Assembly: GCA_041671505.1 (NCBI GenBank)
Contig: JBAZBK010000001.1
Coordinates: 5,582-69,581, forward strand
Source: Thermoanaerobaculia bacterium
GTDB taxonomy: Bacteria > Acidobacteriota > Thermoanaerobaculia > Gp7-AA8
Length of the DNA stretch: 64,000 bases
Direction: 5' to 3'
In this document: positions 2,516 to 18,853 of the stretch, one piece after another
Position numbering within the stretch: position 1 is the stretch's first letter
Layout: the number at the start of each line of letters is the position of its first letter
Position numbers and translations under genes: made by a program
The notes under the pieces: model-generated
What the model saw: the letters and a program-made list of their open reading frames with translations, nothing else
The model's database searches: none
What the model was told of the DNA's origin: nothing

Positions 2516-4111
2516 CTACAGGAGCACCTCGCGCCAGCCGGTCTCTGGGCGCAGGCACGATGCTTTGACCGCTCCGAGGAGTTGTCCGCGGTGCGCGAGC
2601 TCGGCGACCACCGCACGGTGCGCACCCTCACCAACCTGCACCACCTCGACCGCAGCGAGCTGTCCCAGCTTCCGCGCCCAGTCGTAGTGCGGATTCGCCG
2701 AGAGCTCGCGCTCGAGACGCTGCGCGATTCCCTCCGGCAGCGATGCGCGCGCATCGACGAAAAGCACGTACCCCGCGGCCGCATCCGACCGCTCCGGCGC
2801 GAGCATCGCGAACTCAGGCATTCTCTCGTCGCCACCGAATGCGGCGGCGAGCGCCGACGCGACGAAGCCTTCGCTCAGCTTCTCGCCGCAGAGGTCAGAG
2901 ATCCGGTCCTCTTTCCCGACGAAGCGGATCGATGGGGTATTCGAGACGAATCCATCGACGCGCACCAGGTCGTGAAGGCGGTAGCGGTAGAGCCCACCCG
3001 AGGTCGTGACGACCACGGAGTAGGTCTCCCCTTCCCGCGCCTCCTCGACGCCACGTACTTCGCCTCCGGCGTCGACCATCTCGATGAAGTGGCTCCCGAT
3101 CGCGATCGGCCTCGCCCCTCCGAACGGCAGCGAGACGATCGCCTCCGTCGCGACGAGTCCCTTCGGCACGATCGGCGTCGCCGGAATGAGCCGACGCAGC
3201 GCCGCCACGGCGCCCGCCGCCTGCCCGTCCGCCCAGCAGCTGATGCAACCGAGCCTCGGCCACACGCTCTCCGGCCGCGCCGGATCGGCCGCCTCGAGAC
3301 TCCGCGCGAGCGCGCGATCACCGCGCATGACGATCGCCGCGTCGGCGCCCTCGAGACCCGGCACCCGCACGCCATCCGCAACTGCGCGTAGCAGATCGCC
3401 CCATCGCTCCGCCATGAAACTGCAGAGCAGCTCGAGGAACGACGGATGCCACACGGAAACGACGCGCAGCTCCCTCGCGCGGAGCAGGAAGAGGAGCGTT
3501 GCCATTCTGAAGTCGTCGACGTTTTCGACGTGACGCACCGACGATGGCACGGCGAGCGACGCCCTAACCAGTCTCCTCGACCAGAATCCGAGGTATGCGG
3601 AGTCGTCGTCGAAGCCGACCGGCACTGCGCCCGCTTCGTTCGACTCGGGGATCGCCGGAGAGATCGCCCAGTACGACGGGCCGCGCAGCAGGTCGCGGTT
3701 CCCGCGGAACATGTCGGAGATCCATGCGCCGATCGCACGCTGAAACTCGCGGCGGAGCGACGGCGTGAACGGGATCAGCTTCCGCGCCGCGGTGCTGCCC
3801 GAGCTCGGAACCAACCTCTCCACCGCGTCGGCAGTGAGCACCCGCTGTTCACCGGCCCGAATCCGCTCGACGTACGCGACGTAGTCGTCGTAGCTCGAAA
3901 GCGGCACGCGCTCGCGATAGTCGGACACCGAACGGATCCCGGCAAAACCCATTGCGCGCCCGAATGCCGTCCCTTCGTTGCGCCTCACGATTCGCTCTAG
4001 CAACGCGGCCTGCTCCCGCGCCGGATCGTCGAGGGCGCGGCGCAGCGCGCCAGCGTCTTTCCGGCACGACCGTTCCCACGCAAGGTTCGCGAGGAACGCG
4101 CTCGCCTTCAC
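2516..4111 (-). CDS. GH3-family acyl-acid amido synthetase (adenylate-forming, amino-acid conjugating)
   Basis: 531 aa. Contains the GH3 motif-I-like SSGSTAARKLIPFT plus further GH3-like blocks. Its start ATG overlaps the stop of the upstream acyltransferase gene. Confidence 0.8.
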   Translation of the reverse strand: MKASAFLANLAWERSCRKDAGALRRALDDPAREQAALLERIVRRNEGTAFGRAMGFAGIRSVSDYRERVPLSSYDDYVAYVERIRAGEQRVLTADAVERLVPSSGSTAARKLIPFTPSLRREFQRAIGAWISDMFRGNRDLLRGPSYWAISPAIPESNEAGAVPVGFDDDSAYLGFWSRRLVRASLAVPSSVRHVENVDDFRMATLLFLLRARELRVVSVWHPSFLELLCSFMAERWGDLLRAVADGVRVPGLEGADAAIVMRGDRALARSLEAADPARPESVWPRLGCISCWADGQAAGAVAALRRLIPATPIVPKGLVATEAIVSLPFGGARPIAIGSHFIEMVDAGGEVRGVEEAREGETYSVVVTTSGGLYRYRLHDLVRVDGFVSNTPSIRFVGKEDRISDLCGEKLSEGFVASALAAAFGGDERMPEFAMLAPERSDAAAGYVLFVDARASLPEGIAQRLERELSANPHYDWARKLGQLAAVEVVQVGEGAHRAVVAELAHRGQLLGAVKASCLRPETGWREVLL

Positions 4112-4848
4112 GCGCCTCTCCGCCCGGAGCCCGCCGTTTCAGGAGCGATCGCGCCGCTGACCATCCGCCAGCCGGCGCGCGTGAGGTTGGCGGCCGAGAT
4201 CTCCGTCAGACAGACGAGCTCGTCCCCATCGGCGTGCCCGGGATTGCGCTCGAGGAAGAAGGCGACGTGCGGGTCGTGCAGCCTACCGACGGCGAGCTCG
4301 CGAAGGTGCGGCCGCAGGCGCGCCGGCTCGCGGAACCTGACGATCCCCGCCGCGGAATCGTATTCGTCGCCTAACAACGGACCCGCGAGCGCGTCGATCC
4401 GTCTCGCCGTCTCCGGTGGCGTCTCCGCGTCGAAGCACGGATGGAAGGAGCGCCAGAAGAGCGGCAGGTATCGGTAGGTGCGAAATCCCGACGTCAGCAG
4501 CAGCCAGAAGATCCGCGACGTCGACGCGCCCGACTGCAGCTCGAGGATCGACGCGATCCAACTTCGTGCGAGCGCCGGACTGCCCCAGTGCGACGGATCG
4601 ACGATCGTGTCACCGGAGTAGACGATCGAGACCCGCTCGCCTTCGAGCTCCGTCACGTAGAAGAGAATCGTCGAGAAGCCCGCGAGCGTTCCGTCAGCGT
4701 CCCGGAGCAGGAGGACCCAGTTCTTCCCACCGAGGTCGAGCTCGAACCTCGCACGGGAGACGTTCTCGAAATGCGCGTCGATCAGCGCGTACATCTCGCC
4801 GACGACTTCGGGCGCGAGCGCGCTGCGTGCGGTGAGCGTTCCGATCAC
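4108..4848 (-). CDS. GNAT-fold N-acyltransferase, N-acyl amino acid synthase-like
   Basis: The conserved C-terminal 247 aa (VIGTLTARS...FYVTELEGERVSIVYSGDTIVDP...) lies behind a GTGA start/stop overlap with the upstream gene at 4845-4848. The 506-aa ORF listed (to 5628) has an Arg-rich N-terminal extension that overlaps the neighbouring gene and is judged artefactual. An alternative ATG start is at 4794. Confidence 0.55.
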   Translation of the reverse strand: MIGTLTARSALAPEVVGEMYALIDAHFENVSRARFELDLGGKNWVLLLRDADGTLAGFSTILFYVTELEGERVSIVYSGDTIVDPSHWGSPALARSWIASILELQSGASTSRIFWLLLTSGFRTYRYLPLFWRSFHPCFDAETPPETARRIDALAGPLLGDEYDSAAGIVRFREPARLRPHLRELAVGRLHDPHVAFFLERNPGHADGDELVCLTEISAANLTRAGWRMVSGAIAPETAGSGRRGA

Positions 4849-5951
4849 AGCGTCGCCACCTCCACGTGCAGCGGCCGGGCATCGAGCCCCGTCGATTCCT
4901 CTCCGTCGTAGAGCACTCCGTAGAGAATGCTCCCGAGGATGCGGGCGCGCAATCGGTTCCGCAGCGCCGGAACGAGCGGCCGGCTCTCCGCGAGGCCAAG
5001 AACGAGCAGCTCGAGCTTCCGCGCCACAGCCGTGTTTCTGATCCGGTCGATCAGCGCGATCGCGACGGCCGGATCGTCGTCGATCACCGCGAAGTGAGAG
5101 ATCGTGGCGATGCGCAGTCTCTCGCCGACCGCCGGCAGCCTCGGTTGGCCCGTCATCGAATACCAGGCGTTCGCGATGCCCCGCACGCGCCCTAACCATG
5201 GCGCATAGCCGCGCACGACGCTCTGCCGATATTCCGACTGGTCCCAAAGCGCCGCGCCGCCGACGATCACACCCTCGCGCATTGCGACGACGAAATCGTC
5301 GAGCGACAAATCGCGTGTGGCCTCGTTCGACAGCAGATCGCCCTCGGTCCAGACGGGCGCGAGCTGATACGCGCGGTATTGCGCTTGAAGAAACGACGCG
5401 ATCGGCGCGGCGCCCACTGCAGCACCTCGCTCGATTGTCAGACCGGAGGGCGCGCTCGAGGCGCGTCTCGAAGCGACCGGGACGAGCAGCGTCCGGAACC
5501 CGCCGAGCGGAACGTAACGCGGAAGGCCACGTACGCCTCGCTCGAGAAAGCGCCGCGCCGTCGCGTTGTCCGCCATGATGCTCGTGTAGTCGAAGGGGAG
5601 CTCGTCGTCGAGACGCGACGCGCGGCACGCTGCGAATCCCGCCTCGATCGTGTGTCTGATCGAAGCCGCCGCGCGCTCCGAGCGAAGCTGCCCGAGGTAA
5701 CCGACTCTCGCCAGACTGCCGTTCACCCAGACTCGGCGCACCGCTCTGCTGCAGAGCCCCGTCACCGCTCCATCGGCTTCTCGTGCGACGAAGACATGGT
5801 GCCGCTCACCCTCGACGGTCGCGGAGAGCGCCGCATCGGGCTCGCGCTCGAAGGTGAGTCGGATGTCACCTTCCATCGGCGTGCGGCGCAGCAGCGCGCG
5901 CACCGCCGCGTCGTCTTCGGGGGTCGCCCGCTCAAGCACCCGTCGCGGCAT
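4845..5951 (-). CDS. GNAT-domain protein with C-terminal domain of unknown function
   Basis: 368 aa. The N-terminal roughly 170 aa show GNAT features (TPEDDAAVRALL..., ...ADNATARRFLERG). It overlaps the downstream gene by 4 nt and the upstream radical SAM gene by 20 nt, so the genes are translationally coupled. Confidence 0.5.
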   Translation of the reverse strand: MPRRVLERATPEDDAAVRALLRRTPMEGDIRLTFEREPDAALSATVEGERHHVFVAREADGAVTGLCSRAVRRVWVNGSLARVGYLGQLRSERAAASIRHTIEAGFAACRASRLDDELPFDYTSIMADNATARRFLERGVRGLPRYVPLGGFRTLLVPVASRRASSAPSGLTIERGAAVGAAPIASFLQAQYRAYQLAPVWTEGDLLSNEATRDLSLDDFVVAMREGVIVGGAALWDQSEYRQSVVRGYAPWLGRVRGIANAWYSMTGQPRLPAVGERLRIATISHFAVIDDDPAVAIALIDRIRNTAVARKLELLVLGLAESRPLVPALRNRLRARILGSILYGVLYDGEESTGLDARPLHVEVATL

Positions 5952-7335
5952 GGGCCATCACGCTCCCCCGAGGCAGCAGCTCGCCGGGCCAGCTCTCGTC
6001 TCCCATCGGCAGGCCGTTGCGCCCCGAGACGTCGCGTTGATGCAGCGTGTTCGCGACGAGGAACGTCGCAAGCATCCGCGGATTGCGAAGATGCACCGGG
6101 TGCCGCATCCGCTGGACGATGCTCGGCCACGAGTAGAAGTCGCGCCGCGCTTCGAGGCAGAGCGCCGCGAGCTCCTTCGGCTCGAGCCGCTTCGGCAGGA
6201 ACGGCACGTCGTTGTACCTGTATCGCGCGTCGAGCCACCACGCGTCGTGCAGCAGCCTCCCCTCGGTCGCGAGCCTCGCGTAGAGCGGCGTCCCGGGAAA
6301 CGGCGTGATGTGATTGAACGCCGCGATGAAGAGCGCCTGGTCGCGCGCGAACCTGACCGTCTCCCGGATCGACTCCGGCGTGTCCTGGTCGTAGCCGAAG
6401 ACGAAGGTCCCGTAGGTCCGCAGGCCGAAGCGATGAAGATTCGCGATCGCCGCCGCCGCGCCGCCGCGCATCAGGTTGAACCCCTTGTTCATCGTGCGGA
6501 GCGTTTCGGGGTCGAGCGACTCGAGGCCGACGAGTACTCCCTGGCAGCCGCTCCGCCGCATCAGCTCGAGCGCTTCCTCGTCGTGCGCGACGTGGATCGC
6601 CGTCTGGCTGACCCATCGCACTTTGAGAGGAATCAACGCGCGCATGAACTCCTTCGCCGCGTCGAGCTCGCACGTCATGTTGTCGTCGACGAAGAAGATC
6701 ATCTTCCCCGACGCGCGCACTTCTTCGACCTGGGCTAGCACGCTGTCGAGCGAGTGGACCGCATGCGTCGCGTTGTGGAACGACTGCACCGCGCAGAACT
6801 CGCACTTGAACTTGCAGCCGCGCGCGAACTCGATGAGGTGGATAGGCAGGTAGTTCTTCCCGCGATAGATCGAGCGCAACGGCCTAACCGATCCCGCGAG
6901 CGATCCCGTCCCCGCGTATGCGTCTGCCGCGTTTCCGCGGCGGTAGTCGTCGATGACCTGGCGGAACGTCGTCTCTGCGTCGCCCGTCACGATCGTCTCG
7001 CAGTGCGCGCGGACCTCCGACGGGCAGAGCGTCGCGTGGTAGCCCCCCATCACCACGGGGACTCCCCGCTTCCTGTACTCGCTCGCGATCTGATAGGCGC
7101 GGCGCGCCGTGTAGGTCTCGACGCTGATCGCGACGAGGTCGGTCGGCGCGTCGAACGGGACCTTCTCCATCCGGTCGTCGTAGAAGCGCACATCGACATC
7201 GGGCGACGCGAGCGCGGCGAGATTCGCCGCGGGAAGCGGCTCCATCTGCCACGTACGGATGTAGCCGCGCATCCCCACCCTCCGGCCGACGCAGGGATGG
7301 ACGATCGTCAGCCGGAAGCGCTCACGCGATCTCAC
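5932..7335 (-). CDS. B12-binding radical SAM enzyme (class B), paralog 2
   Basis: 467 aa. Rossmann-like N-terminal cobalamin-binding region, a CKFKCEFC CxxxCxxC cluster motif, and end-to-end similarity to the upstream paralog. Overlaps the upstream gene by 14 nt. Confidence 0.85.
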   Translation of the reverse strand: MRSRERFRLTIVHPCVGRRVGMRGYIRTWQMEPLPAANLAALASPDVDVRFYDDRMEKVPFDAPTDLVAISVETYTARRAYQIASEYRKRGVPVVMGGYHATLCPSEVRAHCETIVTGDAETTFRQVIDDYRRGNAADAYAGTGSLAGSVRPLRSIYRGKNYLPIHLIEFARGCKFKCEFCAVQSFHNATHAVHSLDSVLAQVEEVRASGKMIFFVDDNMTCELDAAKEFMRALIPLKVRWVSQTAIHVAHDEEALELMRRSGCQGVLVGLESLDPETLRTMNKGFNLMRGGAAAAIANLHRFGLRTYGTFVFGYDQDTPESIRETVRFARDQALFIAAFNHITPFPGTPLYARLATEGRLLHDAWWLDARYRYNDVPFLPKRLEPKELAALCLEARRDFYSWPSIVQRMRHPVHLRNPRMLATFLVANTLHQRDVSGRNGLPMGDESWPGELLPRGSVMAHAATGA

Positions 7336-8680
7336 GCGCCGCCTCGTCGCTCCGCCCCAGCGGAGCCGGAATCATCGCGTCGCACGTGTACATGCGATCG
7401 AGGTGATAGGCGTAGTAGCGGTAGCCGAAGTTCGTGCCGAGTGCCGTCATCCAGGGCGCGGCGGTCCGTCGCAGGCGCGACCACATCCCCGGCAGGCTGT
7501 AGGCGTGCTTCCACGCGAGCTCGGTGCCGCGCTGCAGCTCCGCCGCGGTCATCAGCGCCGGGCGGAAGACGACGTGCTGCCCGTCGTAGAGGCTCCAGTC
7601 GCGCGTCGTGATGCGCCCCTGCGCGTCGAGGTCGCGATGCAGCGGCGTCGCCGGGAACGGCGTCACGATCGCAAAGCGCGGAAGATCGATGCCTGCGCTC
7701 ACCGCGAGCTTCGCGGTCTTCAGGAAGACGTCGGGGCCGTCGTCGTCCAACCCGAAGACAAAGCAGCCCTGCAGCGCGATGCGATGCCGGTGCAGTTTCT
7801 CGACGACCTCCGCGTAGTTGCCCGGAACGTTGAATCCCTTTCCCGTCTGCCGCAGCGACACCGGCGAGAGCGATTCGAGTCCCATGAGCAATCCCCGACA
7901 GCCGCTGCGCGCCGCGAGCGCGAGAAGTGGCGCGTCGTCGCAGAGGAGCGTCGTCGCCAGTCCGTACCATGCGATCCGCAGAGGGACGAGCGCCTCGAAC
8001 AATTCGGCCGCGTACTCCTTGTCGGCGATGATGTTGAGGTCGACGAAGATCGCGTGCTTCGCGCGGCGCCGGCGGATGTCTTCGACGATCGCCTCGACCG
8101 GCTTCTGGTAGGGCTTTCGTCCCCACGCCGTCGGCACGACGCAGAAGCTGCAGTTGTGGATGCAGCCGCGCGTCGCCTCGAAGACGTTCGCGGTGAGGTA
8201 GCGACCCTCGGGCAAAACCGAGCGATCGGGAAGCGGATAGCCGGTCAGTGTGAGATCCGGCCGCTGGTCGTAACGGCTCTTCATCGCCCCGGCCGCGAAG
8301 TCTCGCAGCAGCTGCGGCCAGCTCTCCTCCGCGTAGCCGACGACGATCGCGTCGGCGTTCGGCGCCGCGTCGTCGGGGACGAGCGTGACGTGAGGCCCCC
8401 CGAGGACGACGGGGATGCCGCGAGCGCGAAACTCCGCGGCGAGCTCGTAGGCGCGCATCGCGGTTCCGGTGATCACCGTCATCCCGACGAGATCGACGTC
8501 GATCGAGGTGTCGACGTCCTGAATCCCCTCGTCGAAGCAGACGACGCTCGCGTCGAGCTCGGGAGGGACCAGCGCAGTGAGCGTCGGGAGCGTCAGCGGC
8601 ATGTAGCGCAGCGACTTCCTGAAGATGCCCTTCCGATAGCGGTAGAGCGGTCCCTTGGGTGAGATTAGTGCGATTCGCAT
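7322..8680 (-). CDS. B12-binding radical SAM enzyme (class B), paralog 1
   Basis: 452 aa. MRIALISP... B12-binding N-terminus and an ATRGCIHNCSFC radical SAM motif. Confidence 0.85.
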   Translation of the reverse strand: MRIALISPKGPLYRYRKGIFRKSLRYMPLTLPTLTALVPPELDASVVCFDEGIQDVDTSIDVDLVGMTVITGTAMRAYELAAEFRARGIPVVLGGPHVTLVPDDAAPNADAIVVGYAEESWPQLLRDFAAGAMKSRYDQRPDLTLTGYPLPDRSVLPEGRYLTANVFEATRGCIHNCSFCVVPTAWGRKPYQKPVEAIVEDIRRRRAKHAIFVDLNIIADKEYAAELFEALVPLRIAWYGLATTLLCDDAPLLALAARSGCRGLLMGLESLSPVSLRQTGKGFNVPGNYAEVVEKLHRHRIALQGCFVFGLDDDGPDVFLKTAKLAVSAGIDLPRFAIVTPFPATPLHRDLDAQGRITTRDWSLYDGQHVVFRPALMTAAELQRGTELAWKHAYSLPGMWSRLRRTAAPWMTALGTNFGYRYYAYHLDRMYTCDAMIPAPLGRSDEAAREIA

Positions 8681-8782: not shown

Positions 8783-10261
8783 TCACGCGTCCGCCCCCGC
8801 GACTGATCCGGGGCTGAAGCTTCCGTCATGGCTGCGCTGGCGTCGCGCGAAACTCACGATCGATGCGCGGAACGTCTCGAGAAGTCGCCGCGCGCGGGCG
8901 TCGTCGAGCGCTTCGATCTCGCGAGAGGCGCTCTCCAGCGCCCGTTCGGAGCGCGTGAGCTCTGCCGCCGACCATGCGCGGAACGCTTCGCTGCAGCGCA
9001 GCTCGCCCACCGAGACGTTCGACCAGGCTGAACGAGGCACGTTGACGAGCCCGTGCGCGAGGTCGTCGTCGAGATCGCGGAAGACCGAGCACCAGGCGAG
9101 CGCACCGAGCAGCGCCGGGACATCGCTCGCTCGCGCGCGACAGCCGGTGACGACGAGCATCAGGTCGACCGAGAGCTCGAAGGTACGGCGATGATGCGCG
9201 GCGAGCTGCCGTTCGTCCCAGACGGCTCGCGCGAGAACACGCTCACGATCGACGCGCATTTCGCACACGAGCGCGATGAATTCGGCCTGCGGGTCGGCCT
9301 CGTCCGAGCGAATGGCGTCGAGCTCCGCGAAGAGCGCTCCCGTCAGTCGGGAGAGTGGTTCCGACGTGAACCGCCGACGCGTCATCTGGTCGATGAGCTC
9401 GTCGACGACCTCGAGCGGTTCCCGCGCCGACGCACGGTCGCCATCGAGCAAGTCGTCGATCCACTGCGCCGTGCAGAAGGCGAAGCGCACGGCACGCCTC
9501 GCGCGCCAGCGAAGAAGCGAGGGAAGCCAGATCGCGAGAAAGATCACGAAGTAGCGGCGGTGCCTGATGGAGAATCGCGCGCACTGCTCGAGACAGCAGA
9601 GCTCGGCCCAGAGATTCGAGCGCGATTCCCGCCGCTCGAGAGGCCGGTAGACGAGCAGTATTCCCGCCGCCGCGAGCGCGGCTCCACCGACGAGATCGAC
9701 GAGATGATGCTCCTGGATCAGCAACGCAGACGCCGCCACCGCCGCGCTCCAGCCGATCCAGAGCGCGCGCCCCATCGCACCGGAGCGGCGCGCATAGGCC
9801 CACGCCGCCGTGCAGGCGAAGGCGACGTGAAGCGACGGGAACTGGTTGTACTCGAGGTTGATCGCGTCGGCGAGATTGAAGAAGCCGGCGGCCCAGCCGT
9901 GAACGACGGGGCGCGCGAAGGCGGTCGTCTGCGGGAATGCGAAGAAGAAAGCAGTGGCCACGAGCGTCTCGATGACGAGGGCTGCCCAGAGCGGTACGAG
10001 CTCTCCCGGACTGCGAAACACGAACGGCGCGAGCATCAGCGCAGGAGTGATCGTGAGGTAGACGATCGCGAGCGACGGCACGAACGGGAGGCTCGACTCG
10101 AACGGCAGATCCCAGGCAGAGAGGCCGATGAGGCGCGACGTCCACCACGACGCCCCTCCGTAACAAAGCGCAAAGAGAATCGCGAATGCCGCGCAGAGCG
10201 GGATCGTGCTCCGAAGCTCGCGTCCGGGCCAGGCGAGAAAGGCCTCTCGCGGCGCCGTCAT
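8783..10261 (-). CDS. Fusion protein: N-terminal PAP2_3 (Aur1/IPC-synthase-like phosphotransferase) membrane domain plus C-terminal squalene/phytoene synthase family domain
   Basis: Start set at the ATG at 10261, which overlaps the stop of the upstream desaturase gene (ATGA). The N-terminal half is multi-TM with PAP2 motifs FPSLHVA and HHLVD. The C-terminal half carries both Asp-rich SQS/PSY motifs: FAFCTAQWIDDLLDGD (compare YAFCRvADDviD) and FRDLDDDLAHGLVNVP (compare RDxxeDxxxGRxYLP). The 781-aa ORF listed (to 11128) has 289 Arg-rich N-terminal codons overlapping the desaturase gene and is rejected. Confidence 0.75.
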   Translation of the reverse strand: MTAPREAFLAWPGRELRSTIPLCAAFAILFALCYGGASWWTSRLIGLSAWDLPFESSLPFVPSLAIVYLTITPALMLAPFVFRSPGELVPLWAALVIETLVATAFFFAFPQTTAFARPVVHGWAAGFFNLADAINLEYNQFPSLHVAFACTAAWAYARRSGAMGRALWIGWSAAVAASALLIQEHHLVDLVGGAALAAAGILLVYRPLERRESRSNLWAELCCLEQCARFSIRHRRYFVIFLAIWLPSLLRWRARRAVRFAFCTAQWIDDLLDGDRASAREPLEVVDELIDQMTRRRFTSEPLSRLTGALFAELDAIRSDEADPQAEFIALVCEMRVDRERVLARAVWDERQLAAHHRRTFELSVDLMLVVTGCRARASDVPALLGALAWCSVFRDLDDDLAHGLVNVPRSAWSNVSVGELRCSEAFRAWSAAELTRSERALESASREIEALDDARARRLLETFRASIVSFARRQRSHDGSFSPGSVAGADA

Positions 10262-11265
10262 GATGCGAGCCTCTCCGCGTCCGGAATCTCGGCATTCGCG
10301 GGAAGCGGACGCGGACCGCGCCACATCTGCAGGTAGATCGTCCAGAACGAAGGCCGTTCTTCGCTTCGATCCACGAGCCCCCCGAGATGAATCCACGGAA
10401 CCTGGGGATGGCGGTGGTGCGCCAGGTGATGGTGGTAGTTGAGAAAGAGCCTTCGTGTGAGGCCGTTCACCCGCAGATTCCATGCGCCATCGCGTACGTC
10501 GAGCTTCGAGAAGGCGTGGTCGGTGTACTGCAGCGAGCTCCAGTTGAGCGCGAAAGCGGCGTAGCAGGCGAGCCATCCCGTCCAGCTGAGATCGAGCACC
10601 TGGAACATCGCCACCTGCACCGCGGCGCTGCAGAGCAGCTCGAGCCGGATCCTGACTCCCGATGCGTCGGCGAGACCCGCGAACATCGACGCCCCGCCCG
10701 TCTGCAGTGCGAGCTGCGAGTCGCGCGCCCCGAGGAACCTTGTCTGAAATGCCCGCGGAACGATGAAGTAGACGAGCCCGCCGAGCGGAACGAAGAGCCA
10801 GTAGAGCCCGGTGAGGATCGCGTACCACTGCGCGTACTTCAGGACGACGTTGTCGCCGGGATGAACATAGTCGAACTGCTCTGCCGCCGTCCGGTTGCGC
10901 GCGTGGTGCGCGAGGTGAAAGACGCGCTGTAGTGCGAGCCCGGTCGGAAAGAACGCCGCGGCGAGACGCCCGATCCACTCGTTCAGACCCCGATGCGCGT
11001 GAGCGATTCCGTGCACCGACTCGTGCAGCAGCGCGAACATCGTGTTGTTGAGGAAGGCGAAGGTGATCGCGGCGACGACGACGGTCCAGGTCGAGCCATG
11101 TGAAGCGAGACGCAGCAGGAAGGCGCAAGATGCGGCGACGGCGACGAGGAGCACGAGATTCCAGCTCCCCGGAATCGGGTAGTCACCGTTACGTGGAAGC
11201 CGCAAATCGCCGATGAGGATCATCCTTTGTCTCTTGTTCCCCTCAGACCGCCATCTCACTGACAT
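10258..11265 (-). CDS. membrane fatty-acid desaturase/hydroxylase superfamily protein (CrtW/DesA-like di-iron His-box enzyme)
   Basis: Three His boxes, HESVHG, HLAHHAR and HHHLAHHRHP, with several hydrophobic segments. An alternative start is at 11223. Confidence 0.8.
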   Translation of the reverse strand: MSVRWRSEGNKRQRMILIGDLRLPRNGDYPIPGSWNLVLLVAVAASCAFLLRLASHGSTWTVVVAAITFAFLNNTMFALLHESVHGIAHAHRGLNEWIGRLAAAFFPTGLALQRVFHLAHHARNRTAAEQFDYVHPGDNVVLKYAQWYAILTGLYWLFVPLGGLVYFIVPRAFQTRFLGARDSQLALQTGGASMFAGLADASGVRIRLELLCSAAVQVAMFQVLDLSWTGWLACYAAFALNWSSLQYTDHAFSKLDVRDGAWNLRVNGLTRRLFLNYHHHLAHHRHPQVPWIHLGGLVDRSEERPSFWTIYLQMWRGPRPLPANAEIPDAERLAS

Positions 11266-11472: not shown

Positions 11473-12120
11473 TCAGGCCGCGGCTCCCATCCGCCCGGAG
11501 CGCTTCCCGATCACGAAGCCGACGAGGAGACCGAGCGGAAGAAGCACCATCGCCGTCCCGAAACCTAACTTCCTCACCTTCGCGAGAACCGGATTGTCGA
11601 AGACGTTCGCGGAGTAGTGAAAGCTCGCGATCAGCCAGCGATCGCCTTCGCGCACCATCGTGCAGCTCCACCGCCCCTTGATGTCGAACGTCTGCCCACC
11701 GACCAGCTCGTAGTGGTCGTTCGAGCTCCCGTAGGCGACGCCCGTGTCGCCCCCGTAGAGCGTCGTCAGGGCGTCCGCCTCGAACGCGACCTTCACGTCC
11801 TTCACGACGTGACCCGGCCCGTTGAGCATCTTGTCGAAGTAGGCGCGAATCGCGTCCTTCCCTTTGCAGACGTCGCCGTTCATCGTCGTGAATACGACGT
11901 CGGGCGTCACGTTCGCGACGATCGTCTCGAGGTCGCGCTCGTTGAGCGCCTTCGACATCGTCGCCTTCAGCTGGCGAAGCGCCTGATGCACGGCTTCGTC
12001 GTTTGCGGGCACCGGTGCGATGACCGGAGCCGGCGACGTCGCGGAAGCGGGCGCCGGCGCAGTCGCGCTCGGCGCGACGACCGCGATCAGCAGCAGGGTG
12101 GAAAGCAGTGAGCTCATCAT
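11473..12120 (-). CDS. NTF2/SnoaL-like fold protein with signal peptide and C-terminal TM anchor
   Basis: Start at the ATG at 12120 (MMSSLLSTLLLIAVVAPSATA..., GAGGAG Shine-Dalgarno 5 nt upstream). Its ATG overlaps the upstream Rieske gene stop (ATGA). The ORF listed to 12432 has an Arg-rich extension inside the Rieske gene and is rejected. Confidence 0.5.
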   Translation of the reverse strand: MMSSLLSTLLLIAVVAPSATAPAPASATSPAPVIAPVPANDEAVHQALRQLKATMSKALNERDLETIVANVTPDVVFTTMNGDVCKGKDAIRAYFDKMLNGPGHVVKDVKVAFEADALTTLYGGDTGVAYGSSNDHYELVGGQTFDIKGRWSCTMVREGDRWLIASFHYSANVFDNPVLAKVRKLGFGTAMVLLPLGLLVGFVIGKRSGRMGAAA

Positions 12121-13238
12121 GTCTCCTCTCGCTCGAATCGGGGAAGGTCGCAGAGATACTGATAGCAGGCGTCGAGTGTCGCATCGCGCTCGTCGTCGAA
12201 ACGCGGGTGGAACCTGATTCCCTGGAGAGCCCTCACGTCGCGCCTGAGAAACGCGATGAAGAGGAGCTTCGCAAGGTGCGCGTGGATGACGTGAAGCCCC
12301 GATGGACGCCTCGGCACGCCGACGAGCGGCAGCAGCGACACGCCGCCCGAAACCGGACGCAGGCTCACGATGAGGAAGCTGCGCCTCGTTCCCACGGTCG
12401 CTTCGACCACGACCATGCTCCCGCCGGCACAAGTGACGACGTTGCGGATGTCATCGCCCGACAGCGCGCGCATCGCCCGGTCGCTCCACCCATCCCCCGT
12501 AACCGACGTCGCGTATCGAATCCGGAACGTCATCGCGTCGGGCCGATCGATCTCCGGCTCGCAGTGGAGACGACGCCGATGCACGCTGCCGAGATGCGCC
12601 ATGTCGAATGCGTTGGCGACCGGCACGAACCAGGGGCAGTCGATGAACGCCGGCTTGCCCGATACGAAGAAGAGCGTCTCGGGATCGACGCCGGAGAACG
12701 AAGGGATCGGCAACGGAGGATTGGCGCCGAGGTAGACGAAGATCATCCCGAACTTCTCCGCAGCGCTGAACTGCCGGCGTCTCAACTCCGCGGGGACTTC
12801 GGCCCGTCCCGGAATCGATTCGCACGCGTCGCCGTAGAGCCAGTGGTGGAGCGGGCAGCGAAGGCGGTCGCCGACGACGTCGCCATGCGATAGATCGACA
12901 CCCTGGTGCGCGCAGTGCGCGGGAATCGCCCGGACGGTTCGCGACTCGCGGCCGCGGAACAGCACGATCTGCTCGCCGCCGACTTCGAACCGGCGCGCCT
13001 CGCCAGGACGCAGCGACGACGACGGCGCCAGCATGTACCACCACGGCACGAGCTGCGGCGGCACGCGCTCGGGAGGCGGTTCGTCGGAACGAACCTGCAG
13101 AAAGCGACCTTTCGAGGTCGCGATCAGCGGCCGGATGTGCGTCTCATGTTCAGGAATTCCGAAATTATAGGGCCGAAGCGCCACGCGCAGCACGTCGAGG
13201 TGGCCGCGGTCGCCGGGGAGCGCGAGGCCAGCGGGCAC
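12117..13238 (-). CDS. Rieske [2Fe-2S] domain non-heme iron oxygenase-like protein
   Basis: 373 aa. Rieske ligands CAHQG...(17 aa)...CPLHHW (CxH...CxxH) after a typical VPWWYMLAPSSSL...VLFRG lead-in, with a large C-terminal catalytic domain. Confidence 0.8.
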   Translation of the reverse strand: MPAGLALPGDRGHLDVLRVALRPYNFGIPEHETHIRPLIATSKGRFLQVRSDEPPPERVPPQLVPWWYMLAPSSSLRPGEARRFEVGGEQIVLFRGRESRTVRAIPAHCAHQGVDLSHGDVVGDRLRCPLHHWLYGDACESIPGRAEVPAELRRRQFSAAEKFGMIFVYLGANPPLPIPSFSGVDPETLFFVSGKPAFIDCPWFVPVANAFDMAHLGSVHRRRLHCEPEIDRPDAMTFRIRYATSVTGDGWSDRAMRALSGDDIRNVVTCAGGSMVVVEATVGTRRSFLIVSLRPVSGGVSLLPLVGVPRRPSGLHVIHAHLAKLLFIAFLRRDVRALQGIRFHPRFDDERDATLDACYQYLCDLPRFEREET

Positions 13239-13284: not shown

Positions 13285-13326
13285 GGCTGCCCGCATAAAG
13301 AAAACTGCCCGGCGCGAATCGCTCGC
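13285..13326 (-). terminator. intrinsic terminator for the secreted-protein gene
   Basis: 12-bp perfect stem ctgcccggcgcg/cgcgccgggcag with a 7-nt loop, followed on the minus strand by TTTTCTTTATG. Confidence 0.5.
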
Positions 13327-13368
13327 GCCGGGCAGTGGAAACAACACCGCTGAAAGACTTGAAGACGC

Positions 13369-14175
13369 TTACTGCTGCTCGAGCGGCGTCTTCCCCGCCT
13401 TGTCTTCGATGCCGCGGACGAACACCTGGTCGCCCGACTTGTTGTCGACGACCGAGCCCCACGAGTAGATCGGCTGCGTCGACTCGAAGGTGACGAACCC
13501 GTCGTTGAACCACACCGTCCCGAAGAGCTCCGCCATCGACATCTGGCGCATGCTCTTCGGCGGGATCGTGATGACGAGCCCCTCGAGAAGCCTGACCCCG
13601 GGCGCGCCGTAGAGCACCGACTTGATCGTCGCAGGCTCGCTGCCCGGATTCATCACGCCGACGTTCGTACGGAATGACGTCGCTCCGGCGATGCCGGTGT
13701 CGAAGCTGTTCTTCAGGTGCAGCACCACCGTCTGCAGCTTCGCGTCGGAGAGCGACATCGCCGGCACGTACTGCCCGTAGGTTCCCTGTACAGCGGCGTT
13801 AGGCGAATCGGTGTAGATGCGCGAGTCGGCAACGAACTCGTAGCTCGCGTCGGTGTCGGAGTCGAGCCGGAGCGCGCCGATCGTGTTCGCCGTCTCCCCG
13901 AAGAAGTCTCCGACGATGTCGTTGAGCACGACCATCTGGCGCTTCGGCACCGTCACCAGCCGCCCGGGGATGTTCGTCCCCTCGACGCCCTGCGGCAGGT
14001 AGTGGATCGACACGCTGATGTCGTCCGTCGACGACGGGTTGAAGATCCGCACGTCGGTGCGGAAGAAGGTGTTGTTGCCACCGGCTACTTTCCCCGCGAC
14101 TGGGATGTACATGTTCTTCGCCGATGCGCCGAGAGCGAAGGTCGACAGGATCAACAGGTACAGGATGCGTTTCAT
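13369..14175 (-). CDS. secreted hypothetical protein
   Basis: Start at the ATG at 14175 (MKRILYLLILSTFALGASA signal peptide, AGGAGAT Shine-Dalgarno). The upstream part of the listed ORF has no Shine-Dalgarno and is not a signal peptide. Confidence 0.6.
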   Translation of the reverse strand: MKRILYLLILSTFALGASAKNMYIPVAGKVAGGNNTFFRTDVRIFNPSSTDDISVSIHYLPQGVEGTNIPGRLVTVPKRQMVVLNDIVGDFFGETANTIGALRLDSDTDASYEFVADSRIYTDSPNAAVQGTYGQYVPAMSLSDAKLQTVVLHLKNSFDTGIAGATSFRTNVGVMNPGSEPATIKSVLYGAPGVRLLEGLVITIPPKSMRQMSMAELFGTVWFNDGFVTFESTQPIYSWGSVVDNKSGDQVFVRGIEDKAGKTPLEQQ

Positions 14176-14394
14176 GGGCCGATCTCCTATGACGATTGTG
14201 AACACGGGGCCAGGACCTGGGGACCGCGAGAACGTCCGCGAAGCCCTTCGCGGACGAGTCACATGAATACGTTTCCTCGCGACATTCTGTTTCCGCCTTC
14301 CGGTTGCAAAATCGTTACGGGCGGGCGGGTCCTGCGGGCGGGAGGGCTCCCTAACAAACGAGGCCGTTTCCGGCCCGCTGCGAGGGAACGCGAG

Positions 14395-15276
14395 TTACTT
14401 CGGCCAGCGCACGAATTTTGAGGGCAGAGGCTGGAACTCCGAGGGGAGCGGCGCGGTGAAGAGCATCTTCCTGCCGGTCCGCGGGTGCAGGAATCCGAGA
14501 GTTCGCGCATGAAGGGCGAGGCGCCCGAACGGGTCGCTCGCCGCGCCGAAGCGCGCGTCGCCCGCGACGGGAAATCGCTGGTCCGCGAACTGCGCGCGGA
14601 TCTGGTTCCGTCGTCCCGTCTCCAGCGTCACCTCGAGCATCGAGTAGAGCTTTCCTCTCTCGACGACGCGATAGTGCGTGATCGCGAGCTTTCCACCGTC
14701 GCGCTCACCGACGACGCGCACCATCAGCGTGCGCGGTTCCTCACGGAGGTACGACCGGATGGCTCCCTCATCCGTAGGAGGGCCGCCCTCGACGATCGCG
14801 ACGTAGACGCGATCGATATCGTGCTCTTTGAACGTCTCCTTGAGCACGTCGCGCGCGAGGGGGCTCTTCGCCAAGAGCATCACCCCTGAGGTGTCGCGGT
14901 CGAGCCGGTGGACGATGTGGACCTTCTCGCGCTCACCGGCCCGCAGGTACTCATTCAGAAACGCCTCGGCCGTCTGCTCCGTCTCGTCCTTCGTCGCAAC
15001 GGAAAGCAGCCCCGACGCCTTCGCGACGACGATGACATCGTCGTCCTCGTGAAGGATCGACAGCGCGCCCGAGAGCCCCCGCAACTGCGAGCGGTTCGCG
15101 AGATCGATCTCGTCGCCCGGCACGACCCCGCGCCGCGCGTTCTTCTCGAGCACGCCATTGACGCTCACCCTCGACTGCTGAAGCATCTGCCGCAGCGTCG
15201 TCTTGCTCGACTCGGGAAAGCGGAGCGCGAGCGCGGAGAGGAGATCGGTCTTCGCATCGGCGACGAATTTCGGCAC
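14395..15276 (-). CDS. rluD: RluA-family 23S rRNA pseudouridine synthase (RluD-like, S4 + catalytic domain)
   Basis: N-terminal S4-like region and the HRLDRDTSGVMLLAK catalytic Asp motif. Confidence 0.85.
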   Translation of the reverse strand: MPKFVADAKTDLLSALALRFPESSKTTLRQMLQQSRVSVNGVLEKNARRGVVPGDEIDLANRSQLRGLSGALSILHEDDDVIVVAKASGLLSVATKDETEQTAEAFLNEYLRAGEREKVHIVHRLDRDTSGVMLLAKSPLARDVLKETFKEHDIDRVYVAIVEGGPPTDEGAIRSYLREEPRTLMVRVVGERDGGKLAITHYRVVERGKLYSMLEVTLETGRRNQIRAQFADQRFPVAGDARFGAASDPFGRLALHARTLGFLHPRTGRKMLFTAPLPSEFQPLPSKFVRWPK

Positions 15277-15937: not shown

Positions 15938-16095
15938 GCGAGAGGCGAAGAGCGGGCGTGTGGAGTGCGAAAGCGGAGCTTTCGCACTCCACATCACAAT
16001 GCCTCTCTGCCGGCTCTCGCCTCTCGCCTCTCGCCTCATCGCCTCATCGCCTCATCGCCTCATCGCCTCATCGCCTCATATCCTCACATTCCTCA
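15915..16095. repeat. GC-rich repeat region: CGCCTCT/CGCCTCAT heptamer-octamer tandem arrays flanking a perfect 14-bp-stem hairpin (15961-15991)
   Basis: tggagtgcgaaagc gga gctttcgcactcca, then (ctctcgc)x3 (ctcatcgc)x5. Lies between the convergent cueR and copA genes. Related copies occur at 26280-26580, 49717-50048 and as fragments elsewhere. Confidence 0.6.
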
Positions 16096-18853
16096 ACCTC
16101 AGCGCGTTCGTAATCACCGACACCGAGCTGAAGCTCATCGCCGCGGCCGCGATCATCGGGCTCATCACGACTCCGAAAAGCGGGTAGAGGACGCCCGCCG
16201 CGATCGGCACGCCGAGGGCGTTGTAGAAGAAGGCGAAGAAAAGGTTCTGCCGGATGTTCTTCATCGTCGCCTGGCTGAGGCGCCGCGCGCGCACGATGCC
16301 GCGCAGGTCGCCCTTCACGAGAGTCACTCCCGCGCTCTCCATCGCGACGTCGGCCCCCGTTCCCATCGCGATGCCGACCTCGGCCTGCGCGAGCGCCGGC
16401 GCGTCGTTGATGCCGTCGCCCGCCATCGCGACGATGCGTCCTTCACTCTGCAGCCGCTTGATCGCGTCAGCCTTCCCCGAAGGGAGCACTTCGGCGATGA
16501 CCTCGTCGATGCCGAGAGTTCTCGCGACCGCGGCAGCGGTCGTCCGGCTGTCGCCGGTCAGCATCACGATGCGGAGCCCCTCCGCGTGCAACTGCCTGAT
16601 CGCTTCGGCGGTCGTCTCCTTCACCGGGTCGGCGACGCCGACGAGTCCGACCGCCTTGCCGTCCGCGACGACGAACATCACCGTCTGTCCTTCGCCGCGC
16701 ATCGATTCCGCGCGCGACGCGAGCGCAGCCGCATCGATGCCGATCTCCGCGAGCATCGCTGCGTTACCGAGGGCGACGCTCACGCCATCGACCACGCCTC
16801 GCACTCCCTTGCCGGTGACCGAAGCGAAATCGTCGACCGGGCGGATGACCACGCCGCGCTCGAGCGCGCCGTCGATGATCGCGGCCGCGAGCGGATGCTC
16901 GCTCGCCGCCTCGACGCTCGCCGCGAGCCGGAGCAGCTCCTTCTCGTCCATACCCTCGGCTACGACCGTCGCGAGTCGCGGCTTCCCTAACGTCAACGTT
17001 CCCGTCTTGTCGACGACGAGGGTGTCGACCGTCCTCAGCACTTCGATCGCCTCGGCGTTGCGAAAGAGAACTCCCGCGGTCGCGCCTTTCCCCGTCGCGA
17101 CCATCACCGACATCGGCGTCGCGAGCCCGAGAGCGCAAGGGCAGGCGATGATGAGCACCGCGACGGCGTTCACGAGCGCGAACGCGAAGCGCGGCTCGGG
17201 ACCGACCGCGGCCCACACCGCGAAGGTGATCAGTGACGCGACCATCACCGCGGGCACGAACCACGAGGCGACGGTGTCGGCGAGTTTCTGGATCGGCGCG
17301 CGGCTCCGCTGCGCCTGCGCGACCATGTTGACGATCTGCGAGAGAAGCGTGTCGGCGCCGACTCGCTCGGCACGCATGAGCAGCGAGCCCGTGCCGTTCA
17401 CCGTCGCGCCGATCAGGCGGTCTCCCGCTCCCTTCTCGACCGGGAGCGCCTCCCCCGTCACCATCGACTCGTCGACGCTCGAAGAGCCGCTGAAGACCAC
17501 GCCGTCGACGGGGATCTTCTCGCCCGGACGGACGCGAAGGGTGTCGCCCGGCTGCACTTCACCGAGGGGCACGTCAGTCTCGACGCCGTCGCTGCCGAGA
17601 CGGCGTGCGGTCTTCGGTGCGAGGCCGAGCAGCGCGCGGATCGCGGCGCCTGTCCGGCTGCGCGCCCGGAGCTCCATCACCTGGCCTAACAGCACCAGCG
17701 CCACGATCGCGCCTGCCGCCTCGAAATAGACGCCGACGTGCCCCTGTGCGTCGCGGAACGCGGCGGGGAAGATGCCCGGCGCGAGCGTGGCGACGAGCGA
17801 GTAGAGATACGCCACCGAGACGCCGGTGCCGATCAGCGTGAACATGTTGAGGTGCCGGTTCACGAGCGACGCCCACCCGCGCTCCATCAGCGGCCATCCC
17901 GCCCAGAGCACCACCGGCGTCGCGAGCGCGAGCTCGATCCAGTTGCCCCACATCGTCAGCGTGTGGCCGAGCATCTCGTGCGAACCGGGCAGATGCCGGA
18001 GCATCGCGAACGCGACGAGCGGCACCGTGAACAGGAGACTCACCTTGAAGCGGCGCGTCATGTCATCGAGCTCCGGATTCGCCTCATCGAGCGTCACCGT
18101 CCGCGGCTCGAGCGCCATGCCGCATTTCGGGCAGGCGCCAGGCTCCTCTCTGACGACCTCGGGGTGCATCGGGCAGACCCATTCGGTCTTCGTCGCCGGC
18201 GCGGTGATCGTCTCCGGCTCGAGCGCCATGCCGCACTTCGGGCAGGCGCCGGGGCCTTCCTGCCGAACCTCGGGATCCATCGGGCAGGTGTGGATCGCCT
18301 GCGCGAGATCGCCCGCCGGCATCGCGAGCTTCTTCTCGCCGCGGAGGTACGGGCCGGGATCGGCGTCGAACCTCGTCTTGCAGCCCGTCATGCAGAAGTA
18401 GTAGGTCTTACCGTCGAGGACCGAGGTCGCCGCGGCCCTCGCCGGGTCGATCGTCATCCCGCAGACGAGGTCCTTGACTGTCTGGCCGCTCGTTTCAGGG
18501 GCCGCAGCGCCGTAGGCCGCAGGATCAACGTCGAACTTCTCCTTGCAGATCTTCGCGCAGAAGAAATGGTTCGTGCCGCCGACCATCGACGAGCCTGCGG
18601 CCTTCGCAGGGTCGATCGTCATGCCGCAAACCGGGTCCTTGACCCGTTCCACTTCCGGTGCGGTCGCGGCGAAACCGTACGCACCTGGATCGGCGTCAAA
18701 CTTCTCCTTGCAGCGCGGCGAGCAGAAGTAGACCGTCGTGTCGCCGGCGCGCGACGTTCCCGCCGCCTTCGACGGATCGATCTTCATGCCGCAGACCGGG
18801 TCGATGACGCGGTTGTCCGCATGTTCAAGGCCGTGATGTTCGTGGCTGTTCAT
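16076..18853 (-). CDS. copA: copper-translocating P1B-type ATPase with N-terminal 3x YHS domains and 2x CPMHPE/CPKCGM heavy-metal-binding domains
   Basis: 925 aa. Three DPVCGMxIDP...YYFC repeats (YHS), two CPM[DH]PEV...[12 protein letters not shown] repeats, a CPC transmembrane motif ([13 protein letters not shown]), DKTGTLT phosphorylation site and [10 protein letters not shown] hinge. Confidence 0.95.

Follow-up and report, generated by a model that had tools for sequence, protein, structure and literature searches.

A PAP2 membrane domain fused to a divergent squalene synthase-like domain within an uncharacterised, multi-phylum lipid/terpenoid gene cluster

What might a single bacterial polypeptide do that joins a membrane-embedded domain of the PAP2 superfamily to a domain resembling squalene synthase (SQS) and phytoene synthase (PSY)? 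The question is raised by a gene in a 64,000-nucleotide (nt) stretch of DNA from a Thermoanaerobaculia bacterium (contig JBAZBK010000001.1 of assembly GCA_041671505.1, positions 5,582 to 69,581), which is called the window here. In this work, the gene was found to represent a new architecture and a new SQS-like clade within an uncharacterised lipid/terpenoid gene cluster that occurs in several phyla. Both halves belong to well-known superfamilies, and no described example of their combination was found. An initial annotation of this DNA, made from the sequence alone, had stated that no characterised enzyme with such an architecture was known, and searches of the full-text literature agree: they gave neither a characterised enzyme of PAP2 + SQS-like architecture nor anything relevant for the gene cluster, and likewise a literature search gave no relevant paper for the PDB entry 8is6. 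The gene and its features are the following:

8783..10261, minus strand: PAP2/SQS-like fusion gene, 492 codons and a stop
9635..10219, minus strand: six-helix PAP2 membrane domain (amino acids (aa) 15-209)
9827..9838, minus strand: PAP2 motif C2, PSLH (aa 142-145; FPSLH is aa 141-145), aligning to AUR1 FPSLH
9695..9709, minus strand: PAP2 motif C3, HHLVD (aa 185-189; EHHLVD is aa 184-189), aligning to AUR1 HHYFVD
8822..9631, minus strand: SQS/PSY-like all-helical domain (aa 211-480)
9437..9457, minus strand: first Asp-rich motif, DDLLDGD (aa 269-275; within FAFCTAQWIDDLLDGD, aa 260-275), aligning to HpnC VDDLGD
9035..9079, minus strand: second Asp-rich motif, RDLDDDLAHGLVNVP (aa 395-409), aligning to HpnC QDIDRDLALGRIYVP

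The first point to be settled is whether the fusion is real. The initial annotation had described a single open reading frame (ORF), and the frame at 8783..10261 is indeed continuous over 492 codons, with no stop inside it. Extended mechanically, this ORF runs upstream to a TTG at 11128 and would encode 781 aa in total. However, the GC content at third codon positions (GC3) is 0.46 in the extension versus 0.82 in each half of the fusion gene, and the extension overlaps the desaturase-like gene upstream of the fusion, which is read in another frame. The 781-aa version was therefore rejected, and the true start is taken to be the ATG at 10261. A GGAGAG sequence is located 9 nt upstream of this ATG, which overlaps the stop of the preceding gene (ATGA), and the fusion reads as translationally coupled to that gene, which is of the fatty-acid-desaturase type. 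The NCBI database contains a 100% identical protein under the name 'MAG: phosphatase PAP2 family protein [Thermoanaerobaculia bacterium]'. The AlphaFold2 model of the fusion has a mean local confidence (pLDDT) of 90.8 and a predicted template modelling score (pTM) of 0.84. Because the window is derived from a metagenome-assembled genome (MAG), a misassembly or frameshift that merged two genes was considered and rejected. More than 150 independent sequences show the same architecture, as do complete genomes of cultured Corallococcus, Archangium, and Myxococcus. GC3 stays uniform from one side of the junction to the other, and the junction helices (187-209 and 211-233) are modelled with high confidence. 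The probability of such an artefact is thus negligible. By sequence, the gene product is one polypeptide with two intact-looking active sites, and all of the motifs quoted in the initial annotation (FPSLH, EHHLVD, FAFCTAQWIDDLLDGD, and RDLDDDLAHGLVNVP) are present in it.

Residue conservation was read from a 25-sequence alignment of close homologues, and a broad family alignment contains the relatives at 23-41% identity. The N-terminal domain has the six-helix PAP2 membrane fold and scores 39.6 bits against PAP2_3 (PF14378; Pfam gathering cutoff 27) and 29.8 bits against PAP2 (PF01569; cutoff 27.2), and PAP2_3 is matched by all 25 aligned homologues. The fusion protein is, by these profiles, a member of the PAP2 superfamily (PAP2_3). 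In motif C2, S143 is conserved to at least 90% and the residues P142, L144, and H145 do not vary at all, and H185 and D189 of motif C3 are likewise invariant. The catalytic residues H145, H185, and D189 align to those of AUR1 and LpxE. On the other hand, the close alignment contains no conserved Lys and no conserved Arg-Pro of motif C1 (KxxxxxxRP). R116-P117 is present in the window protein and lost in P0045, P0056, and P0114-P0120. The arginine of C3 (SRxxxxxHxxxD) was never seen in this alignment either, as position 179 after the conserved Ser178 is occupied by A, T, or S. A His/His/Asp triad without the basic residues of C1 and C3 marks the phosphodiester-transferring branch of PAP2 enzymes (Aur1 and sphingomyelin synthase, SMS), whereas the monoester phosphatases retain those residues. 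Judged by its motifs, the PAP2 domain thus follows the Aur1/SMS pattern: the His/His/Asp triad is there, but neither the Lys/Arg motif of C1 nor the Arg of C3 is.

When the PDB was searched with a profile of the family alignment, LpxE was the best match (E 0.006), followed by yeast AUR1 (E 0.03). The AUR1 match spans just about 65 residues at this E value, with FPSLH and HHxxD aligned residue for residue. The closest structural match of the PAP2 domain was SMSr. The Aur1-like PAP2_3 domain of the initial annotation was thus borne out. The fusion shares PAP2_3, FPSLH and HHxxD, and the absence of C1 and of the C3 Arg with the Aur1 inositolphosphorylceramide synthase and with SMS/SMSr (PDB 9vj3/9ivc, 8ijq). 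It differs from them in being bacterial, in having a C-terminal isoprenoid-synthase-like domain, and in that no Kei1-like partner was seen. LpxE, PgpB/BcrC, and PLPP6 belong to the same superfamily and have the same predicted topology as the PAP2 domain, but in the fusion proteins C1 is absent or not conserved and the C3 Arg is absent, and none of those enzymes is fused to a synthase. A sphingolipid (ceramide) head-group synthase was also considered, since myxobacteria and Bacteriovoracaceae carry the system and the Aur1 motifs match. It is not supported, because there are no sphingolipid genes near the fusion and that pathway has no use for an SQS-like domain; a literature search on a ceramide link also gave nothing.

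The C-terminal half is more divergent. It has the all-helical fold of the SQS type, and D269, D270, D273, and D275 of the first Asp-rich motif and R395, D396, D400, N407, and P409 of the second do not vary in either alignment, close or broad. Further arginines are invariant in the close alignment (R233, R236, R256, R259, R276, R339, R341, and R377), so that there are nine of them together with R395. HpnC was ranked first by Foldseek for this domain (E 7.6e-4) and was matched by phmmer (PDB 4hd1) at E 2.6e-5 over aa 224-475. The initial annotation had proposed scoring the protein against PF00494 as well as against the two PAP2 models. Both PAP2 models exceeded their cutoffs, but the full-length protein did not match PF00494 at E<0.1 in a Pfam scan, and the isolated C-terminal domain reached 20.7 bits (E 3.8e-4, profile positions 13-244 of 263), under the cutoff of 26. 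At E<=0.01, PF00494 is matched by 7 of the 25 close relatives and 6 of the 13 distant ones (best E 7.2e-12), and one relative fused to a desaturase (P0157) exceeds the cutoff with 37 bits. The closest curated models are HpnD and HpnC. The HpnC model (TIGR03464) gives 13-15 bits against an NCBIfam cutoff of 250, and the HpnD model (TIGR03465) is matched weakly by 8 of the 13 members of the broad family, the best of them at E 2e-5, which is far under its cutoff.

When 1.84 billion representative proteins were scanned by HMMER with the SQS-like domain, just 281 were found at E<=0.001, and the ordinary SQS/PSY enzymes were not reached in that scan at this threshold. Members of this clade carry no annotation other than 'PAP2 phosphatase', 'fatty acid desaturase', or 'hypothetical protein'. 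The 'CR', 'DYCRY', and 'GRxYxP' motifs of HpnC-type enzymes correspond to 'C-x-A-Q-W', 'HH', and 'GLxNxP' in the fusion. Functional roles of the conserved Tyr (position of CrtM Y129 and SQS Y171), of the 'CR' arginine, and of 'GRxYxP' are known from CrtM and SQS. A canonical squalene, phytoene, or dehydrosqualene synthase (an orthologue of HpnC, HpnD, CrtB, or CrtM) was therefore rejected, as the scores are far under the curated cutoffs, the key residues are replaced, and no hpn or crt genes stand beside the fusion in the loci surveyed. HpnC, HpnD, and CrtM (PF00494; PDB 4hd1, 2zco) resemble the domain in size, in the lack of an NADPH-binding extension, and in the location of the Asp-rich motifs in equivalent helices. 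In contrast to them, the SQS-like domain forms a separate small clade of 281 representatives under the Pfam cutoff and occurs attached to a membrane enzyme or in fusions with oxygenases. Thus, of the SQS/PSY domain in the initial annotation, the fold and both Asp-rich motifs remain, but not its canonical character. In terms of sequence, the C-terminal domain is a distinct, divergent clade of the SQS/PSY fold and not a demonstrable family member by curated thresholds.

It may be asked whether such a domain works on isoprenoids at all. It could instead be a regulatory or scaffolding cytoplasmic domain, or a binder of another diphosphate ligand, with PAP2 alone being catalytic. The scores under the Pfam and NCBIfam cutoffs, the loss of several canonical residues, and the failure of the family profile to match canonical SQS structures at E<=1 would be in line with it. 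However, both Asp-rich motifs and the nine arginines are invariant down to 23-41% identity, and stand-alone and oxygenase-fused forms occur without any PAP2, which makes this explanation very improbable. The SQS-like domain has very probably kept Mg2+-dependent diphosphate chemistry, to judge from these residues.

How widespread is the fusion? The database survey suggested by the initial annotation gave 152 homologues among 5.8 billion proteins, most of them full length (430-510 aa, >90% query coverage, 42-78% identity) and with the same architecture. In a scan of one genome per species, the full-length fusion was found in Thermoanaerobaculia and other Acidobacteriota MAGs and also in Woeseiaceae, Steroidobacteraceae, and Gemmatimonas MAGs. 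The cultured carriers include many Corallococcus species, Pyxidicoccus, Archangium violaceum, A. gephyra, Myxococcus spp., 'Comamonas sp. KCTC 72670', and Roseateles sp. NT4, and the complete genomes of C. coralloides and C. exercitus encode the full-length protein. Among the best 150 sequences of the SQS-like clade, 53 are PAP2+SQS-like, 7 are desaturase+SQS-like fusions without PAP2, 3 are triple desaturase+PAP2+SQS-like fusions, and 87 are SQS-like only, a class that includes some fragments. Examples of the triple fusion are those of Roseateles and P0027. A metagenomic protein of 675 aa (P0206) joins an N-terminal SQS-like domain to a cytochrome P450 domain, and it was the single such case seen. 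In Bacteriovoracaceae and Bacteroidota, the PAP2, SQS-like, desaturase, and Rieske proteins are encoded by separate adjoining genes. One Bacteroidota operon (L088 7085-16843) contains two desaturase-like/Rieske pairs, one of which flanks the stand-alone SQS-like gene, while the second comes after a stand-alone PAP2 gene and is followed by genes for a 243-aa unknown protein and a GH3 enzyme. This layout suggests two sub-modules that are merged in the window organism.

Taken together, the fusion patterns (PAP2+SQS-like, desaturase+SQS-like, triple, and SQS-like+P450) indicate an isoprenoid-diphosphate enzyme that is tied to membrane oxygenases and to a phospho-transfer enzyme. The genes around the fusion in the window are the following:

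13304..13336, minus strand: terminator-like hairpin (15-bp stem, 11 G-C pairs, T-rich tail)
12117..13238, minus strand: Rieske non-haem-iron oxygenase, first gene of the operon (Pfam Rieske)
11473..12120, minus strand: SnoaL/DUF4440 (NTF2-like) protein (Pfam DUF4440, SnoaL_2/3/4)
10258..11265, minus strand: membrane di-iron fatty-acid-desaturase-like gene (PF00487, 76.4 bits)
7322..8680, minus strand: B12-binding radical-SAM gene (Pfam, NCBIfam)
5932..7272, minus strand: B12-binding radical-SAM gene (Pfam, NCBIfam)
4845..5951, minus strand: unknown protein (368 aa)
4108..4848, minus strand: unknown protein (246 aa)
2516..4111, minus strand: GH3 adenylating enzyme (Pfam, NCBIfam)

The hairpin separates the Rieske gene from the gene before it (13369..14262) and probably marks the 5' boundary of the operon, judging by its sequence; no terminator was found in the 102-nt gap between the fusion and the radical-SAM genes. 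The PDB matches of the Rieske protein (SxtDIOX, SxtT, KshA, and NdmA) reach into the catalytic domain. The sole NCBIfam match of the desaturase-like protein is a weak one to CrtW, and neither Pfam nor the PDB sequences gave a match for the 368-aa and 246-aa proteins. The NTF2-like protein begins with a cleavable signal peptide and ends in a membrane anchor, both of which are kept in 7 of 7 orthologues, and it looks like a periplasmic, tail-anchored enzyme or lipid carrier. It is also the most conserved component, with 63-80% identity among Thermoanaerobaculia; its orthologues were located, e.g., at L002 8557-9138, L003 6525-7112, and L043 10494-11120. The GH3 protein reaches 50 bits against the model of OlsH (N-acyl-ornithine synthetase), whose cutoff is 620. 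An ornithine-lipid pathway via GH3 was rejected on this score and on the lack of GH3 in the myxobacterial loci.

The neighbourhood was surveyed by tblastn over 87 fetched loci. The Rieske, NTF2-like, desaturase-like, PAP2, and SQS-like components co-occur in essentially every fusion-bearing locus, and a conserved operon is present in about 50 loci of Acidobacteriota, Myxococcota, Gamma- and Betaproteobacteria, and Gemmatimonadota. The set of radical-SAM, unknown, and GH3 genes co-localises with this core in Thermoanaerobaculia, Woeseiaceae, Steroidobacteraceae, and other proteobacterial MAGs and is absent from the myxobacterial loci surveyed. The minimal system of Corallococcus and Archangium consists only of the Rieske, desaturase, PAP2/SQS-like, and NTF2-like proteins, so the SQS-like domain is the sole candidate for a scaffold-forming enzyme there. 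The system is defined by this context, which the initial annotation missed: the obligatory desaturase-like and Rieske genes, the NTF2-like protein that is exported, and the other forms of fusion. Some further genes were seen nearby. A protein of about 920 aa, with an NQR2/RnfD-like membrane region and FG-GAP and ASPIC/UnbV repeats, adjoins the system in Roseateles (Betaproteobacteria; L043 4351-7101) and in Bacteroidota (L088 10424-13186). In the window, a pseudouridine synthase (14395..15276) and a 925-aa P-type ATPase with three YHS and two HMBD heavy-metal-binding domains at its N-terminus (16076..18853, minus strand) are apparently unrelated to the fusion.

With the six helices of the model, 11 Lys/Arg residues fall in the predicted cytoplasmic segments versus 2 in the predicted periplasmic loops. 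The predicted topology, in which motifs C2 and C3 face the periplasm and the C-terminus with the SQS-like domain is cytoplasmic, corresponds to the orientation usual for PAP2 proteins. The di-iron centre and the Rieske oxygenase are inferred to be cytoplasmic as well, and the NTF2-like protein periplasmic. Proteins of the desaturase family typically have both termini in the cytoplasm, and the triple fusions fit the predicted topology if this applies to their desaturase-like domain. Direct channelling between the PAP2 and SQS-like sites is unlikely, because this topology would put them on opposite sides of the membrane. The direct coupling of the two chemistries that the initial annotation had envisaged is therefore unlikely. 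One of the two closest conceptual analogues, next to the gromomycin cluster described below, is drimenol synthase, a bifunctional terpene cyclase-phosphatase made of a HAD phosphatase and a class II cyclase (PMC12232559). It also has a terpenoid-fold domain and a phosphate-ester-handling domain on one polypeptide; however, it contains HAD instead of PAP2 and a class II cyclase instead of the SQS fold, and, as a soluble protein, it has its two sites in the same compartment.

We hypothesize that an isoprenoid is built or attached by the SQS-like domain, oxidised by the oxygenases, and given a phospho-head group by PAP2, and we favour this reading tentatively, at clearly less than even chances. 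In the first step, the SQS-like domain at the inner leaflet would bind a common prenyl diphosphate (of the farnesyl diphosphate or geranylgeranyl diphosphate class) via Mg2+ and ionise it. This would yield an isoprenoid embedded in the membrane, which could be a prenylated lipid or else an HpnC/HpnD-type condensation product or alcohol. Its hydroxylation or desaturation at the inner leaflet would come next, carried out by the Rieske oxygenase and by the di-iron enzyme, whether fused or encoded by an adjacent gene, and the neutral lipid alcohol would get to the outer leaflet. There, the histidine nucleophile of PAP2 could move a phospho-head group from a glycerophospholipid to the hydroxyl of the alcohol, with the release of diacylglycerol as in Aur1/SMS. 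Finally, the NTF2-like protein may act on the product or carry it, and the pathway would end in a polar isoprenoid lipid of the membrane that is of an unusual kind.

Several observations weigh against this proposal, in which every chemical step is inferred. The conserved neighbourhood contains no polyprenyl synthase or other isoprenoid gene. In the HMMER alignment with HpnC, T264 stands in place of the 'CR' Arg, H356 in place of the 'DYCRY' Tyr, and L405 and N407 in place of the R and Y in 'GRIYVP'. The SQS-like reaction may thus be other than a head-to-head condensation, which is not assured because the canonical Tyr and Arg of the head-to-head synthases are replaced. The family profile does not match HpnC in the PDB at E<=1, and a profile of the SQS-like domain only matches PDB entries weakly (phytoene synthase at E 0.009, a CrtM-like protein at E 0.046). 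LpxE, which is a true phosphatase, fits the PAP2 domain about as well as AUR1 does, and the topology is based solely on the positive-inside rule. Furthermore, similar clusters (L064-L079; other Acidobacteriota, Holophagales, Udaeobacter, and Bdellovibrionales) contain related PAP2 genes that have no SQS-like domain within 9 kb, so the PAP2 step is not always in need of an isoprenoid partner. In two of these loci from other Acidobacteriota (L070 7967-9642 and L078 8042-9612), the PAP2 protein stops right after the sixth helix and has no SQS-like domain, and the gene before it (317-333 aa) appears alpha/beta-hydrolase-like by eye (motif 'SLSKGG'). The desaturase-like and Rieske genes in some PAP2-only loci are just about 30% identical to those of the window.

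The LpxE match leads to the first of two other explanations, in which a synthase is combined with a phosphatase. The SQS-like domain would supply a lipid diphosphate (presqualene-diphosphate-like of the HpnD type, or an unreacted prenyl diphosphate), PAP2 would dephosphorylate it to a monophosphate or alcohol, and the oxygenases would follow. Precedents exist for such a step. The mammalian PLPP6 dephosphorylates presqualene diphosphate, the product of the first squalene-synthase half-reaction, and BcrC and PgpB are periplasm-facing PAP2 enzymes that dephosphorylate the cytoplasmically made undecaprenyl diphosphate. Fusions also usually unite consecutive steps, and the weak matches to HpnD, the presqualene diphosphate synthase, in 8 of the 13 broad-family members point in the same direction. 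However, C1 KxxxxxxRP and the C3 Arg, with which the monoester and diphosphate phosphatases hold the dianionic phosphate, are missing or not conserved, and the Tyr implicated in the formation of presqualene diphosphate aligns to His. With the predicted topology, this route would also require a charged diphosphate to cross the membrane to PAP2 and the product to come back to the oxygenases in the cytoplasm. We consider this explanation rather unlikely. The transfer of a head group onto an isoprenoid alcohol appears to fit the motif pattern and the topology better than the dephosphorylation of a presqualene-diphosphate-like compound, both of which the initial annotation had named.

The second explanation follows from the replaced condensation residues and from the GH3 module that is linked to the core across phyla. 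Here, the SQS-like domain would act as a prenyltransferase of the CqsB4/NzsG type on a lipid or amino-lipid that is made or oxidised by the neighbours (GH3, the unknown proteins, the desaturase-like protein, and the Rieske oxygenase), and PAP2 would modify the same lipid at the outer leaflet. It would also account for the SQS-like domain being optional in otherwise similar clusters. Bacterial GH3 enzymes are reported to produce N-acyl amino acids (PMC12493201), which counts in its favour, as does the gromomycin triterpene cluster of Streptomyces, where one isoprenoid pathway includes three Rieske proteins along with a PAP2 protein and a prenyltransferase that resembles terpene synthases (PMC12105684). 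That cluster differs from the fusion system in having separate genes, a polyprenyl synthase, and a P450, and its GroG and GroH are likened to the fusion halves by type only. On the other side, the myxobacterial loci keep the fusion yet are without the GH3 and radical-SAM genes, the many invariant arginines would suit two diphosphate groups, and no acceptor was identified, so that prenyl transfer is unlikely.

Returning to head-group transfer onto an oxidised isoprenoid, the fusion could be the core of an undescribed pathway to a new class of bacterial membrane lipids, namely oxidised isoprenoid alcohols with a phospho-head group. The head group would be added at the outer leaflet by the Aur1/SMS-like transferase, the scaffold would come from the new SQS-like clade working with the di-iron and Rieske oxygenases, and carriers of the pathway would be common among soil Acidobacteriota, myxobacteria, Bacteroidota, and Proteobacteria. 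Taken with all of its parts, this extended proposal is decidedly unlikely and is put forward as a speculation. The fusion marks a conserved lipid or terpenoid pathway that spans several phyla. Its carriers include the abundant, poorly cultured soil Acidobacteriota (Thermoanaerobaculia), whose membrane lipids are of geochemical interest, and as the system is also present in the culturable Corallococcus, Archangium, Pyxidicoccus, and Roseateles, it may be experimentally approachable.

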